A stretch of DNA of 64,000 nt from Rickettsiales bacterium (GCA_018659145.1 JABJNB010000018.1:11039-75038), one strand, 5' to 3'; counted from the first letter of the stretch, positions 18,860 to 55,862 are shown. The notes: generated by a model not told the origin, from the sequence alone. Numbers and translations are program-made.

Positions 18860-19032
18860 ACCCCCTCGCGCTTTGCCCAGGATCACTATCATTATACTTT
18901 GAATTGTGACACAGCCTGTTATGCTCGCCCGGGGATCTGCTAAAAATTCAATGATTGATATGGATGAAGGTTTTCGTGCACCATAAGGGTTGTTACAAGG
19001 GGTTGTCTCATTTGAATTCTAGGTAGTAATGA
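18860..19032. repeat. Cluster of dispersed repeats: degenerate family B copy, family B left half (18913..18970), family A terminal fragment (18971..19032)
   Basis: agcctgttatgctcgccc...aaaaattcaatgattgatatggatgaagg matches 22763.. and 26534..26620 (rc). ...tctaggtagtaatga matches the family A terminal inverted repeat. Confidence 0.7.
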
Positions 19033-40844: not shown

Positions 40845-40982
40845 TCACAGGGCGCGGGATATATATTCAACACCACAATACACAACCCCTTCCTAGGTGC
40901 GGGGCCGACTACGGAGCATAATTATAATGCTTTATAATGCATGGCCGACTCTTGTTTGATCTCGAGCACATAAAGGTTGCTA
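40845..40982. repeat. Degenerate family A core fragment followed by a family B copy (about 40893..40982, rc)
   Basis: tgcttccgggca... matches 55832..; ...cttgtttgatctcgagcacataaaggttgctac aligns with the B end tttgcgtgatcctgggcgaccataaaggtagcc. Confidence 0.5.
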
Positions 40983-46945: not shown

Positions 46946-46953
46946 ATTATTTT

Positions 46954-46976
46954 CGTAAGGGCGGGGTCCTCCCCCC
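46954..46976. repeat. Half-copy of the family A GC-rich hairpin, immediately after greA (possible terminator)
   Basis: cgtaagggcggggtcctcccccc followed by ttctttc. Confidence 0.5.
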
Positions 46977-47040
46977 TTCTTTCAAACACAAGGTCTCTCT
47001 TATATATTATTGCAACTAAGGAAGTTAAAAAGGTTAAATT

Positions 47041-49800
47041 ATGCCTGCAAAAAACCAAACAAAACAACGAGAAGCAAGGTCTTCTGGTTTAGCAGCAGAA
47101 GAGCCACAGGACCCATTATTGCTAGAAGAATATCAAGCTCTTGAAGAATTAGAAATATCTATTTCCAACGAGGGAGATGCTAAAAAACTTTATAAATTTG
47201 TAGAAAAATCTATAAGAGAAAACTCTGGTAAAAAAGTTGTTCTTAAACTTAAACTTAATTCAAACAAATCTCTTGCCAAACAAGATGAACAGCAGCGTAG
47301 GCTTGCTGAAAAGGTAAGAGAGGCAATCAAATTAGCAATTAAGCATGAAAAAATTGAAGTTATATGTTCATTGATAGCAACCAAATTAGAAAATCAAACA
47401 CGATATAGGGAAGGGATCCGCTTATTGCTAAAAACAATTAATCCAGATTATCAGATGGTCTGCATAGCAGCCAAGACAAACAACCCACAAATTACAGACT
47501 TTCTCTTACAAGAAGGGGTTAGTCAGACGGTTGTTAATGAAGCTCTTAAGCAGCAAAACATCAGAATGCTTAAATTTCTTTTAAACTCTGGGGCAAGTTT
47601 AGATGGTGGAGAGATATTGGAGGCTATTTTTTTAGGGGATATAAAAACTATAAATTTTCTTTTAGAGGAATCTCTTCTCTCACCTCGAGATCTATTCTCT
47701 GGCTTAGAGCAGGCCTTTTTCCGCCAGAAAGATAGGGTTAGAAAATTACTTGAAACCAAACTTAAGGAAAATAATTTTAAACTTCTAAAACAAGCCATGA
47801 GTCTACCTGTAAGGATTTATGATTTAGATAGCTGCTTGGAATCCTACGCAGAAGAATCTGCACAAGAGAATACAGAAATAATTGAATTTTTAAAACATTT
47901 TAAAACGTTATATTCAGATTTACTAGCTGCGGCAGAATCAGGAAATTGCCCCAAGATTATGGAGTTAGGAGGTCAAGGATTAAACTATAACTTAGTCTGC
48001 GATGATGACTTAAGTTTATTAGATAAATCCGTAATTCCAGGAAATATTGCAGCTATAGAATTGCTATTAACATTAGGCCTAAAACCTAGTTCTACTACAT
48101 TAGTTAAAGCGATTAGTTCTGGAGAAGCAGAAATTGTTCACTTAATTTTAGGGAGATTAGATGAATCTTTAAGCTCTGAGATATTATGTAAGGCTATTGA
48201 TTCTAAAAACCTAGATATCGTTGCAATGATTCTAAGTAAAGGAGTTGATACTAGCGGCTTTATAGATGTGTTGCTCCATGCCGCTAAATCTAAAAATTTA
48301 AGAATGGTTCAGCTTCTTAAAGAGAAAGGGCTAAAAATTAGAGAATGTAATTTTTCAGGTGGAACGTTAAATAAAGAAGTTATGCTAGGTAATATTGAGA
48401 TTGTTGATTACCTTCTAGAGAATGGAGCTAGTCCTAATAGAATGATAAGCTATAATTATACTGATGCAGATTATGGACTAAACTATGTTGCTAGATTAGG
48501 TCGGCTAGACCTTGTCCGACTACTTTTTAAATATAAGGCGAAGACTCACGCAAATACATTAAGCTGTGGGATTGAGTCAGGTAGAATAATACTTGTTAGG
48601 TTTTTGCTAGATAATATAACAGCTTCTCAATACCTTGGTAATTCATTTTTAGTAAATCAAGCGACTAGCATGGGTAATTATATGATGGTTGAATTGCTGA
48701 TAGAGCATGGTCTAAAGCCTGATATAGGTTCATTAAATAGTGCTATAAAATTAGGCAGAATAGATCTCGTTACGTTGTTTCTAAAGCATGATATACCACT
48801 TCAAACCAAGGATGCTTTCAATTCAATAAATATAGCCATTCAATATAAAAAACTAAATATGCTTAAGTTTCTCCTGAGAAATGGTGCCGAGCCTAATGAA
48901 TATACTTTAAATGAAGTTGTTAGATCAGAAAATATAGAAATAGCAGGCTTAGTTAGAGAGCTTGATGTTCAAGCTAATAATAGCGAGGTAGATGACGTTA
49001 CAGCATTCAGAGGTATGGCGTCTAATACTCTAAATATAGCGATTAGATTAGGAAATCATGTAATGCAAATGATAGCTGTGGAAAAAGGAGCTAAGCCTAA
49101 TTCTCATACATTTAATGTAGTAGCTTCTATGGGGCGCTTAGATTTGGTAAAATATTATCGTAATATAGAAGGTTCAATTAATCATCAGACTCTGGACTAT
49201 GCTATTAAATCTGGCAATTCTGAAGTTATTTCTTATGTCATAAGCAATGGAGCCAAGCCCATCTGTAAAGCAACGCCTTCTTGGGATTCTTGGGACAACA
49301 CATTAAATAGAGCTATTTCCACAGGTAATTCCAGAATTATAGATTTGGTTTTATTAAGTGGGATTAGTACAGAGAATATAACTAATTCTGGCCTTAGTCC
49401 TCTTCAGCAAAATAAATTTCTAGAAAGACAGAGGTTTTTACTAGAAGAGAGAGATATTAGAGCATTAAATCTCTTAAGTAAGGAGGGTTTAGAAGGACAT
49501 CTAGCAGATAACCCAGTCAATGAAGTTAGAGAATGGCTGTCCGATACTAGAGAGAGTACTCAAAGAGAAGTTCTATCAGCAAGTTGGCCAGCAATCTCCA
49601 AACGAGCAGAATTATTAAGTATTGCTGCAGATCCTTCAGTTAGTGGTTTACGTCCTAATCTGGCTGCAGCAGATGAAACCTCACTACAAAGATTTCCTGA
49701 TAGCACAAAAACTACACAGGCAGAAGAAAGGGTAAGATCTCCTTTTTTGGGTCCCCCTGATAGAGCTTTTAAAGAATCAACTGGTCAATCTAGATTTTGA
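47041..49800 (+). CDS. Ankyrin-repeat protein (919 aa), candidate secreted effector
   Basis: Many ANK-like units (e.g. GNIEIVDYLLENGASPN, GNYMMVELLIEHGLKPD, GRIDLVTLFLKHDIP, LNMLKFLLRNGAEPN). Non-repeat acidic N-terminus and Pro/Ser/Arg-rich C-terminal tail. Confidence 0.85.
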   Translation: MPAKNQTKQREARSSGLAAEEPQDPLLLEEYQALEELEISISNEGDAKKLYKFVEKSIRENSGKKVVLKLKLNSNKSLAKQDEQQRRLAEKVREAIKLAIKHEKIEVICSLIATKLENQTRYREGIRLLLKTINPDYQMVCIAAKTNNPQITDFLLQEGVSQTVVNEALKQQNIRMLKFLLNSGASLDGGEILEAIFLGDIKTINFLLEESLLSPRDLFSGLEQAFFRQKDRVRKLLETKLKENNFKLLKQAMSLPVRIYDLDSCLESYAEESAQENTEIIEFLKHFKTLYSDLLAAAESGNCPKIMELGGQGLNYNLVCDDDLSLLDKSVIPGNIAAIELLLTLGLKPSSTTLVKAISSGEAEIVHLILGRLDESLSSEILCKAIDSKNLDIVAMILSKGVDTSGFIDVLLHAAKSKNLRMVQLLKEKGLKIRECNFSGGTLNKEVMLGNIEIVDYLLENGASPNRMISYNYTDADYGLNYVARLGRLDLVRLLFKYKAKTHANTLSCGIESGRIILVRFLLDNITASQYLGNSFLVNQATSMGNYMMVELLIEHGLKPDIGSLNSAIKLGRIDLVTLFLKHDIPLQTKDAFNSINIAIQYKKLNMLKFLLRNGAEPNEYTLNEVVRSENIEIAGLVRELDVQANNSEVDDVTAFRGMASNTLNIAIRLGNHVMQMIAVEKGAKPNSHTFNVVASMGRLDLVKYYRNIEGSINHQTLDYAIKSGNSEVISYVISNGAKPICKATPSWDSWDNTLNRAISTGNSRIIDLVLLSGISTENITNSGLSPLQQNKFLERQRFLLEERDIRALNLLSKEGLEGHLADNPVNEVREWLSDTRESTQREVLSASWPAISKRAELLSIAADPSVSGLRPNLAAADETSLQRFPDSTKTTQAEERVRSPFLGPPDRAFKESTGQSRF

Positions 49801-49914: not shown

Positions 49915-50165
49915 CATTACTGCCTAGAGTTAAAAACTATTAATAAAAATCCTGCGCTTTTTTACAAATCTGACCAATATATAAAATTGCGTAGGGGCGG
50001 GGTCCTCCCGCCCTTGGTAGACCGATCTCGGTGTTTCTGGGCGGGAGGACCTCGCCCCTACGATTCTTTGTTGAAAAAAAATTAAATTCATTTTTCTTGT
50101 ACGCCTAACCCTTTTTATATAAGGCTTTTTATCGCATAATTCTGCTTTAACTCTAGGCAGTAATG
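49915..50165. mobile_element. Family A MITE-like element (251 bp) with perfect 20-bp terminal inverted repeats and a central 73-bp GC-rich palindrome
   Basis: TIR cattactgcctagagttaaa at 49915..49934, with its reverse complement at 50146..50165. Core cgtaggggcggggtcctcccgccc...gggcgggaggacctcgcccctacg at 49990..50062. Inverted copy at 22842..23080. Confidence 0.8.
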
Positions 50166-50174
50166 CGCCCCATC

Positions 50175-51107
50175 TTAGGAACCGCTTTTAAGATGGGAAT
50201 TGGTATAAGACTCTATATATCCCTTTAGATCTGATTCTTCATAACAAGCTAAGGCATCGCTCGCATTACTAATAATTTTTTCTAAATTATATTGTTTATC
50301 AAATGCATTCCCGTGAATTGGTTCACTTGGTACTAGGGCTTGCTCAATTCCTATTTTTATTTGTAACAAAAGTGTAAATAACACCATATTTGGATCAGCA
50401 TTTGGCACAGCTACTCTATATTCTATATGTCTATTATCTGGATCATAAACAGAATCTGGAATTCTAATCGCAACAGTTCGATTATTTTTGCCCCAGCAAA
50501 TATGAGTTGGCGCATAACTGCTACTGCAAACATATCTTTTTTTGCTGGTATCAATGTTTATATTTGGCTTATATCGAGAGAAGTCTGACTCTTCTTCATT
50601 CATAAATATTAATCCCGCATTTATATATTCTAATAAGCCAGCTACAGAATACAGTAAAAGTTTTGACTCTCTCCCCTCTTCTTTGCAATATACGTTATTT
50701 AAGTCATTGTTATATAAAGAAATATGTATGTGCATACCATTACCATGAAAGTCATCTCCAAAAGGCTTTCCGGTAAAATTTAGCTCTAATTTATATGTTT
50801 TGGCTAAATCCATCATTATGGTTTTTAGCATCAAATAATGTTTAACCAATTGAGGAATATCAAAGCTATGTTTCATAGCTATCTCAAATTGATTATTAGA
50901 AGCCTCGATGGCAATATCATGGATCTTTATACCACGATTATGAGCAAAGTTAGCAATATCATCGAGGAACTCTTTATTATCAATATCCTTAACATAAAAT
51001 TCAAATTCTATAGAACAGCAAGGTTTTAGCTTTAGCTGATTATTATAGATATCTAATAAATTATTTAATAAGTTTATGCTATTAACGCCAGGCAGACTCA
51101 TATTCAT
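50175..51107 (-). CDS. Glutamine-synthetase-family protein, catalytic domain only
   Basis: CSIEFEFYV and GNGMHIHISL motifs of Gln-synt_C. At 310 aa there is no room for the N-terminal beta-grasp domain. Confidence 0.65.
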   Translation of the reverse strand: MNMSLPGVNSINLLNNLLDIYNNQLKLKPCCSIEFEFYVKDIDNKEFLDDIANFAHNRGIKIHDIAIEASNNQFEIAMKHSFDIPQLVKHYLMLKTIMMDLAKTYKLELNFTGKPFGDDFHGNGMHIHISLYNNDLNNVYCKEEGRESKLLLYSVAGLLEYINAGLIFMNEEESDFSRYKPNINIDTSKKRYVCSSSYAPTHICWGKNNRTVAIRIPDSVYDPDNRHIEYRVAVPNADPNMVLFTLLLQIKIGIEQALVPSEPIHGNAFDKQYNLEKIISNASDALACYEESDLKGYIESYTNSHLKSGS

Positions 51108-53472: not shown

Positions 53473-53559
53473 AGTTCAATTTAAAATAATCACTTAGTAT
53501 GGATTATATAAATAGATTTTTAATTATTACAAATTAATTTAGCCCCGCCCCTTATTTTT

Positions 53560-55779: not shown

Positions 55780-55789
55780 GGTATAATTT

Positions 55790-55862
55790 CGTATGGGCTG
55801 GATCCTCCCGCCCATGACAGACCGAACTCGATGCTTCCGGGCACAAGGACCCCGCCCCTACG
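55790..55862. repeat. Family A 73-bp GC-rich palindromic core (solo copy)
   Basis: cgtatgggctggatcctcccgcccatgacagaccgaactcgatgcttccgggcacaaggaccccgcccctacg. Same orientation as 49990..50062. Confidence 0.75.

Follow-up and report, generated by a model that had tools for sequence, protein, structure and literature searches.

The 251-bp repeat at positions 49915-50165 of the window (the whole stretch of 64,000 nucleotides of Rickettsiales DNA that we analyzed) is probably a REPIN of the GTAG-REP/RAYT subclass 2.4, carried in a lineage-specific, small, MITE-like unit bounded by terminal inverted repeats (TIRs). The two layers are treated in turn below: the GC-rich core with the transposase that would serve it, and the outer unit in which the core is embedded.

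Architecture of element A

Element A consists of a left TIR, a 55-nt left arm, the REPIN, an 83-nt right arm and the right TIR, in that order:

49915..50165, plus strand: element A, complete TIR-bounded unit (inverted-repeat and self-search evidence)
49915..49934, plus strand: left TIR, CATTACTGCCTAGAGTTAAA, 20/20 complementary to 50146-50165
49990..50062, plus strand: REPIN core, two inverted GTAG-tagged REPs with a 25-nt spacer
50146..50165, plus strand: right TIR, TTTAACTCTAGGCAGTAATG, partner of the left TIR

The preliminary description of this DNA had reported exact TIRs, a palindromic center with a GC hairpin in each arm, and a GC-rich core in AT-rich surroundings, and all of these were borne out. 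The TIRs are reverse complements over all 20 nt (100%). The core arms (49990-50013 and 50039-50062) are 24 nt each, 96% complementary, and separated by 25 nt, while the background has a GC content of 32 to 40%. Each arm contains a REP built of GTAG, an 8-bp GC stem and a 3- to 5-nt loop (GTAGGGGCGGGGTCCTCCCGCCC), at 49991-50013 on the plus strand and at 50039-50061 on the minus strand. For the core as single-stranded DNA, folding predicts a single long hairpin (-35 kcal/mol, z = -9.2); RNA folds reach -66.5 kcal/mol on one strand and -58.7 kcal/mol on the other. The whole of element A, as single-stranded DNA, gives -59.3 kcal/mol (z = -11). The element is flanked by two convergent reading frames, an ankyrin-repeat ORF (47041-49800, plus) and a GlnA-like ORF (50175-51107, minus).

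A tRNA-like identity for the 73-nt core was considered and dropped; ARAGORN found nothing there.

A GTAG-tagged REP doublet at the core

A GTAG tag on a hairpin is the hallmark of REPs that are handled by RAYT/TnpA_REP Y1 transposases (PMC3733652, PMC6006769), and two inverted REPs make a REPIN, which forms one long hairpin (PMC3116915, PMC3733652). Judged by its sequence, the 73-nt core is such a REPIN: two inverted GTAG-tagged REPs, 25 nt apart. The consensus had been described as unrecognized, but GTAG-tagged REPs are a catalogued class (PMC3733652, PMC6006769); the core is thus catalogued in kind, and what is new is the host lineage.

Allowing up to 4 substitutions, REP-like 23-mers occur 8 times in the window, versus 0 in each of 20 shuffles, and three REPs of the window have exactly the master sequence. 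We scanned one genome per species with GTAGGGGCGRGGTCCTCCCGCCC, and 94 stretches were returned. Most came from a single MAG, "Rickettsiales bacterium SI075_bin127," many of them within tens of bases of contig ends, as is characteristic of high-copy repeats. The remaining matches fell in Chloroflexi/Anaerolineae, cyanobacteria, Elusimicrobiota, Deltaproteobacteria, Bacillota and further phyla, where the 23-mer usually occurs as inverted pairs with variable spacers and, in several phyla, within and beside RAYT-like genes.

The matches from other phyla also speak to the hairpin itself. Partner arms show compensatory stem changes, such as GGGCGCGG/CCGCGCCC and GGGTGGGG/CCCCACCC. For an unbiased test of covariation, we collected all 23-mers matching GTAGGGGC-N11-GCCC in the other-phyla loci (25 distinct sequences), a pattern that leaves four stem positions free. 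These free positions were paired in 96% of cases, compared with 68 +/- 3% in column shuffles, a value reached by 0 of 2,000 shuffles. Stem pair 10-18 alone was GC in 9, AT in 9 and CG in 5 sequences of this set.

A sister genome with REP arrays and an intact RAYT

MAG SI075_bin127 is syntenic with the window at 75 to 87% nucleotide identity; at this distance it represents a sister species and not the source of the window. In 303 kb of its loci we counted 155 REP-like sites (up to 4 substitutions), a biased sample and not an unbiased density, as the loci had been chosen for holding the motif. Among the REPs aligned from the MAG, positions 1 to 4 read G, T, A and G in at least 144 of 150. Neighboring REPs are mostly inverted and lie preferentially 25 nt or about 90 nt apart. 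There are also tandem arrays of alternating REPs, whose spacers fall into two classes of about 90 and about 108 nt.

From element A, only positions 76-100 and 125-148, that is, both REPs, recur in the sister MAG. Neither arms nor TIRs had a match in the 303 kb of loci by blastn, nhmmer or a TIR regular expression allowing up to 4 substitutions, and the sister's pth-sodB spacer, orthologous to one that holds a full copy in the window, contains a REPIN whose own spacer differs, at about 80 nt, but no TIRs. The widely repeated module is the REP and not the 251-bp unit. The earlier picture of a dispersed TIR-bounded MITE holds in part: there is a dispersed, non-coding unit with a hairpin core, but the module that is widely repeated is the REP.

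Candidate transposase genes were sought with an E. coli RAYT sequence, which served as bait for candidate finding only. At eight loci the bait matched ORFs adjoining or overlapping the motif. All four of the ORFs tested match the NCBIfam family NF047646, "REP-associated tyrosine transposase" (E = 1e-18 to 1e-19, 66 to 70 bits), and 7 of the 8 candidates have a weak match to Pfam Y1_Tnp. One gene was taken as the reference:

L018:1228-1773: intact RAYT of the sister MAG (NF047646 REP_Tyr_transpos, E = 2e-18)

Its score of 66.7 bits lies under the 80-bit equivalog cut-off of NF047646, a variable insert splitting the match. It matches Pfam Y1_Tnp weakly, and its sole match in the PDB is the E. 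coli TnpA_REP (4ER8). The MAG's own copy aside, none of its homologues in the protein database exceeds 48% identity; these often bear the name "REP element-mobilizing transposase RayT." The protein has the motifs PNHMHGII (HUH), WQRNYYEH and YIYNNP. REPs both flank the gene and sit inside it: a REPIN lies in frame between the HUH and Tyr motifs, encodes MVGAGLSRPEIWGLFNDGWENPTPT, and has the same geometry as the core of element A. Homologues carry variable inserts at the equivalent place (VGARSPRP, RRGEVTSP and GGETPPLR). Published TnpA_REP proteins of subclass 2.4 have NH[IFV]H, WQ and YIxNNP motifs, long and "double-foot" REPs, in-frame REPs and a patchy distribution across phyla (PMC6006769). 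On these motif and context grounds, we assign the REP population of the core to a RAYT/TnpA_REP Y1 (HUH) transposase of subclass 2.4 (Bertels Group 4).

The middle residue of the HUH motif in the L018 protein is M, which lies outside the published NH[IFV]H set (PMC6006769, Table 1).

Other copies and pieces in the window

Besides element A, the window holds the following copies and pieces:

22842..23080, minus strand: element B, second complete copy, inverted, 85.5% identical to A
61612..61784, plus strand: element D, third copy, truncated and decayed (nhmmer E = 6e-7)
55790..55862, plus strand: solo REPIN with a 25-nt spacer, without arms or TIRs, decayed (nhmmer E = 1e-16)
61136..61158, plus strand: single REP, exact master sequence, in frame within the bioD ORF, encoding SRGGVLPP
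46955..46977, plus strand: single REP with 3 substitutions, 10 nt past the greA stop codon
18975..19031, plus strand: partial element, right-arm fragment and right TIR TTGAATTCTAGGTAGTAATG (3 substitutions)

Element B had been recognized as an inverted full copy, and it is one. Its segment 22842-23062 is 85.5% identical to A over 221 nt; it has TIRs at both ends, 22842-22861 with 3 substitutions and 23061-23080 with 2, and its REPs occupy 22946-22968 and 22994-23016. The genes on either side, pth (22219-22752, plus) and sodB (23101-23805, minus), are convergent.

Two solo cores had also been claimed, and they fared differently. The one at 61651-61712 is no solo core, as a left TIR (61612-61632) precedes it and remnants of the right arm and TIR follow. 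Element D, to which it belongs, has a left TIR with a 1-nt insertion, a shortened left arm, a degenerate REPIN, and a right-arm and TIR remnant; a self-search of the window gave a composite match at 61608-61712. Its neighbors are convergent bioD (60937-61596, plus) and folB (61787-62125, minus). The one at 55790-55862 was confirmed (80% identity; self-search extent of the core-only copy, 55782-55862), although it is decayed, with a fold z of -1.25. It lies downstream of an M24 peptidase ORF (55963-57684, minus). Copies C and D, both decayed, have a fold z of about -1.3.

What had been called half-arms at 46954 and 61135 are genuine, each being a single REP hairpin. The match around the first spans 46951-46978 in the self-search, and the second coincides with a 10-residue insertion relative to the BioD of solved structure PDB 3of5. 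The right-arm and TIR fragment at 18975-19031, which had been missed, comes right after a copy of repeat module X; the similarity of its arm was judged by eye. An nhmmer profile recovered the sites of the self-search, but three supposed decayed pieces (29045-29096, 40845-40892 and 53541-53554) gave no match at E < 1. By eye, those at 29045 and 53541 resemble REP halves, and that at 40845 is unconvincing.

The preliminary description had likened the family to the Rickettsia palindromic elements. Might it be an RPE-like repeat that spreads by in-frame insertion into genes? The host is Rickettsiales-like, by the title of the sister MAG; one REP lies in frame in bioD, and a REPIN lies in frame in the sister RAYT. 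In-frame intragenic copies are, however, a general property of REPs (PMC3733652). RPE-4 and RPE-6, which are short rickettsial repeats, are CGTC tagged (PMC3733652), whereas the repeats here are GTAG tagged and have a RAYT partner, and the full copies are intergenic. Reading frames across the element are not conserved among A, B and L106 (a metagenomic copy described below): the longest is 53 amino acids in A and 107 in B, L106 has none of at least 80, and the 53- and 107-amino-acid frames gave no Pfam match. The RPE-like label was not sustained, and we regard that origin as highly improbable.

The same copies bear on a different possibility, that the repeat is a structured RNA or terminator (an sRNA or 3'-UTR element) selected by the host, with copies made by recombination and kept by selection. 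The core hairpin is very stable on both strands when folded as RNA, copies always lie at gene 3' ends, and Rfam offers a look-alike, STnc400. That match stays below threshold, though, at 37 bits against a gathering score of 80; no Rfam family is found at threshold, and a scan of element A for intrinsic terminators returned no canonical one. The GTAG tag, the RAYT association, contig breaks within the repeat and the insertion in bioD all indicate a mobile repeat. We therefore consider an RNA module very unlikely as the explanation of the element; any RNA role would be secondary and compatible with a REPIN. As for known RNA families in general, Rfam at its gathering threshold gave tRNA-Arg only, and a permissive scan of the element gave sub-threshold generic hairpins.

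A RAYT pseudogene in the window

The window contains one RAYT sequence, also missed earlier, which we found with a profile of 120 RAYT homologues:

26563..26862, minus strand: RAYT (TnpA_REP) pseudogene

It is truncated and broken into fragments in three frames, at 26800-26862 (E = 1e-3), 26728-26796 (E = 6e-7) and 26567-26749 (E = 7e-7). Only the N-terminal half is present; the YVIMPNHM (HUH) segment is deleted, and the half with the Tyr motif is missing. Identity to the sister RAYT is 56% in protein and 68% in DNA. The flanks of the two loci are not conserved, the RAYT fragment alone matching.

A population variant, P0122 (L111 plus a 39-kb contig syntenic with the window), has kept the HUH segment and the GTAG of the internal hairpin and is truncated at the same point as the window pseudogene. 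A search for an intact RAYT of the window's organism returned only this truncated variant, the Tyr half being missing in all variants, and no entry of the protein database came nearer to the sister RAYT than 48% identity. REPIN decay after the loss of a RAYT has been documented elsewhere (bioRxiv 10.1101/2021.07.10.451892), and the decayed copies C, D and F fit that pattern, although the three REPs with the exact master sequence do not show such decay.

The pseudogene carries a second type of REP, REP-2, of the form GT(AG)GGGCTACCTTTATGGTCGCCC, with the internal hairpin GTAGGGGCTACCTTTATGGTCGCCC. A scan of the window for solo REP-2 hairpins gave none besides that of the pseudogene.

Could the 251-bp unit itself be what an internal deletion left of a RAYT gene, a "REPtron" remnant in which only the in-ORF REPIN and the gene flanks survive? 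Its REPIN agrees exactly in length and frame with the in-frame REPIN in the sister RAYT (25 codons, V...T), but that similarity is forced by the REP sequence itself. The 120-homologue profile, which does find the pseudogene at 26567-26862, has no match in any frame of A, B, or the metagenomic copies L106 and L108. A RAYT remnant is exceedingly improbable.

The outer unit: copies, flanks and ends

The TIR-bounded unit is present as three copies and one fragment in the window and as two copies on unrelated metagenome contigs, L106 and L108; in all, 5 or 6 loci are known. When a metagenome was scanned for the TIR pattern, there were eight matches, one of which was locus A itself (L105). L106:4672-4922 is a full-length copy, 89.7% identical to A. 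L108:3496-3864 has the left arm and REPIN of A and a longer, different right arm. Both contigs come from the same organism as the window or a closely related one. The other five matches were chance: L104, L107 and L110 hit the start of rplT (MPRVK), and L103 and L109 hit another gene. Contigs of the window's organism in the metagenome end inside the element.

Convergent ORFs flank every full or near-full copy (A, B, D, L106 and L108). Assuming that one spacer in four is convergent, we estimate the chance of five in five at about 0.25^5, and the gene-end location matches the distribution of REPs described in PMC3733652.

Might the whole unit with 19 nt on each side, GTAGGGGCGA...TCGCCCCTAC, be a long "double-foot" REPIN moved by RAYT alone? 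It would then be a giant single-stranded DNA hairpin, the "TIRs" would be just a portion of its stem, and no DDE-type transposase would be involved. L108 has perfect GTAG...CTAC feet 19 nt beyond both TIRs, L106 and D have a GTAG-like left foot at the same distance, and the outer feet pair in single-stranded DNA folds. Such REPs are described for subclass 2.4 (PMC6006769), and the feet are of the same type as the REP-2 inside the RAYT pseudogene. Yet the feet are about 65 to 75% identical between copies, by eye, versus 85 to 92% for the TIRs and arms, and they are barely recognizable in A and B, the opposite of what is expected of feet that serve as recognition sites. The arms between TIRs and core are not complementary, and the bases abutting the TIRs in L106 and B are direct, not inverted, repeats (7/8). 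We judge a double-foot REPIN unlikely, though deserving serious consideration.

The ends of the unit look more like those of a MITE. TIR complementarity is 20/20 in A, 18/20 in L106, 17/20 in L108 and, counted by eye, about 15/20 in B. The direct end repeats are CGGGCGCG/CGGACGCG in B and CTTTATAG/CTTTACAG in L106; A and L108 agree at 4/8 each, so that an 8-bp target duplication is clear in 2 of the 4 copies only. Pooled, the end repeats agree at 22 of 32 positions, against 15.2 +/- 2.1 for window-derived nulls at the same offsets (P of about 0.0015). Outside the TIRs, the flanks read GTAGGGGCGA-ACCCATGTG and CCATAAAGG-TCGCCCCTAC in L108 and GTCGGGGCGA-GCTTTATAG and (A)CCTTTACAG-TTCCGCCC in L106. 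In both contigs they are the two halves of a GGGGCGA...TCGCCCC hairpin of the same type as the REP-2 of the pseudogene.

Because the TIRs are conserved, the arms are not palindromic, the ends carry repeats, the unit is nested in a REP-2 hairpin and the feet are less conserved, the outer layer is best read as a putative MITE-like carrier of the REPIN, a reading less certain than the identity of the REPIN itself. A check for its transposase, in the window and in 804 kb of fetched loci, found no IS or gene bounded by matching TIRs.

Relation to known repeat systems

The closest known system is REPIN/RAYT subclass 2.4 (Bertels Group 4). The features held in common are a 5' GTAG foot and a GC stem with three G-C pairs at the bottom, inverted doublets that make one long hairpin, sites past gene 3' ends with occasional in-frame intragenic copies, "double-foot" variants, and a RAYT with NHxH, WQ and YIxNNP motifs and an in-frame REP or REPIN between HUH and Tyr. 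The differences lie mostly in setting. The host here is a small, AT-rich, Rickettsiales-like marine lineage, and Alphaproteobacteria, including Rickettsiales, are reported to have no or few tnpA_Y1 genes (PMC6006769). REP density is high compared with other Group 4 RAYTs, for which about 14 occurrences of flanking 16-mers were reported. The only RAYT seen in the window's organism is a pseudogene, and three of the four REPINs in the window lie inside a larger TIR-bounded unit.

Enterobacterial BIMEs and the "double inverted repeats" of P. putida and P. fluorescens, in which degenerate GTAG-1 units are joined to unrelated stem-loops (Di Nocera 2013, PMC3733652), likewise place REPs in longer, species-specific mosaics with conserved non-REP segments, and the tandem alternating arrays of the sister MAG recall BIMEs. 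The mosaic described here differs in having 20-bp TIRs unrelated to the REP and a REPIN that is central, not terminal.

Insertion sequences that target REPs, along with IS-derived MITEs, offer a parallel for the outer unit, which is likewise small, non-coding, multicopy and TIR-bounded, lies inside REP-like hairpins and, in L106 and B, shows a putative short target duplication. IS1397 and ISKpn1 are examples of such REP-targeting elements. Another is ISPpu9 of P. putida (PMC8450116), and the phenomenon is credited to Tobes and Pareja (2006) as they are cited in PMC5581495. Unlike these, our element is without a known autonomous partner and carries a REPIN of its own, and its target duplication is clear in just two of four copies.

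The RPEs share with it palindromic repeats in a Rickettsiales-like genome that can lie in frame inside genes. The repeats described here differ in their tag, GTAG in place of the CGTC of the short RPEs (PMC3733652), and in having a RAYT partner and mostly intergenic sites.

A possible route of spread

By analogy with the E. coli TnpA_REP and the IS200/IS605 transposases, the RAYT would recognize the GTAG foot and hairpin on single-stranded DNA; it would cut and rejoin at the foot and so spread REPs and REPINs in trans. The elements would settle just past gene 3' ends, where a strong hairpin may be tolerated. From position and hairpin strength, we infer that the hairpin may also aid the formation or stability of transcript 3' ends. 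One REPIN would have become part of a non-coding unit of about 250 bp with 20-bp TIRs, and this unit may then have spread to at least 5 to 6 loci, each between gene ends; it sits in or next to a second REP-like hairpin, REP-2. Most likely the unit is a MITE moved by a putative TIR-recognizing transposase that would target the loops of REP hairpins and produce an 8-bp duplication.

A bolder version is that the two transpositions are nested and interdependent, the REPIN-carrying MITE homing to REP loops and the in-frame REPIN of the RAYT acting as a travelling seed copy. We regard this as speculative and rather doubtful. Were it true, every jump of the MITE would plant a further REPIN, and every REP would offer the MITE another landing pad; a RAYT-borne REPIN would cross phyla with its gene and found genomic REPIN populations, which would explain how an identical 23-nt REP comes to lie alongside RAYTs that are at most 48% identical.

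Implications

These results would extend subclass 2.4 of the REP/REPIN-RAYT system to a marine, Rickettsiales-like lineage that is small and AT-rich. The twist is a modest one: a REP containing a MITE-like unit that in turn contains a REPIN, along with an intact RAYT in one sister and a truncated one in the other. An intact RAYT with dense REP arrays, set against a truncated RAYT with partly decayed REPINs, makes a sister pair that could serve the study of REPIN decay after RAYT loss.

There are practical consequences as well. Before a GC-rich hairpin repeat of an AT-rich, symbiont-like genome is called "RPE-like" or new, it should be examined for a GTAG tag. Such repeats can generate spurious ORF calls (the 107-amino-acid "gene" over B) and in-frame insertions (bioD). 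They also break metagenome assemblies, as seen in the contigs that end within the element, and may yield chimeric joins. Contig L095 is a case to consider: in it the glnA-side arm with the REPIN runs straight into glyQ at the edge of the REPIN, which is either a chimera or a rearrangement.

REPs within coding sequences

The REP, a GTAG-tagged GC hairpin of 23 nt, is found in frame within genes. The bioD (dethiobiotin synthetase) ORF at 60937-61596 carries a single copy at 61136-61158, which, by comparison with PDB 3of5, supplies ~10 extra residues (SRGGVLPPA) in a loop. The gene for the REP-associated Y1 tyrosine transposase (RAYT) of the sister MAG, SI075_bin127, contains an in-frame REP/REPIN region (L018:1470-1555), a REPIN being two inverted REPs. 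RAYT genes of this subclass (L018 and database proteins P0002-P0070) hold their REPs or REPINs in frame in the interval between HUH and Tyr, some as tandem multiples; P0021, with RRGEVPSP x4, is an example. In-frame REP inserts are known from RAYTs of this subclass (Quentin 2018, PMC6006769). The exact 23-nt REP is common to several phyla, while the RAYT proteins share no more than 48% identity with that of the sister MAG.

The RAYT pseudogene and repeat module X

The window holds a RAYT pseudogene and a third repeat module, module X, of ~50 nt, whose copies are 84% identical.

RAYT pseudogene and module X copies in the window
26563-26862, - strand: RAYT pseudogene, N-terminal half over three frames
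18913-18968, + strand: module X, precedes the partial TIR fragment 18975-19031
22763-22811, + strand: module X, abuts element B (22842-23080)
26563-26612, - strand: module X, forms the end of the RAYT pseudogene

The pseudogene has its HUH motif deleted and lacks the Tyr half. Its population variants, L111 and P0122, retain the HUH motif and are truncated at the same point as the window copy. REP-2 is a second REP type, found as a hairpin within the pseudogene. Module X opens with the 3' half of this hairpin (TATG[C/G]TCGCCC) and continues ...AAAAATTCAATGAT.GATAT.GATGAA.

In the sister MAG, REPs form BIME-like tandem arrays (L018:1-2350, L005 and L021) in which their orientation alternates. 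Two spacer classes, of ~90 nt and ~108 nt, are conserved, as are the flanks. This mosaic is distinct from the window organism's TIR element.

A junction at element A

Metagenome contig L095 (3284-3365) matches element A (49915-50165) through the arm on the glnA side and the REPIN, and then passes directly into glyQ. The switch to glyQ falls at the edge of the REPIN (window position 49990) and reflects either a genuine rearrangement or a chimera created when the repeat was assembled. L095 differs from the window at far more positions in the element part than in the flanking genes.

Chance matches and neighboring ORFs

Public assemblies annotate as a gene a 107-aa ORF that runs through element B (22771-23094, + strand; L100:1087-1410). 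This ORF matches no Pfam family, and an equivalent is not conserved in the other element copies; hence, it is probably a spurious gene call produced by the repeat.

The 20-nt TIR variant CACTAATGCCTAGAGTTAAA occurs in L104 (11705-11724), L107 and L110, where it coincides with the first codons of genes for ribosomal protein L20 (ATG CCT AGA GTT AAA, MPRVK). These are unrelated freshwater contigs, and the match is due to chance and does not mark a related element. Rfam STnc400, a gammaproteobacterial sRNA, matched 49982-50102 (+ strand) below threshold (37 bits; gathering score, 80), which may simply mean that this family contains a long, REP-like hairpin.

The 919-aa ankyrin-repeat protein encoded at 47041-49800 (+ strand) weakly matches Shigella OspC at residues 716-777 (E = 4e-4). 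It looks effector-like, which fits a host-associated lifestyle.
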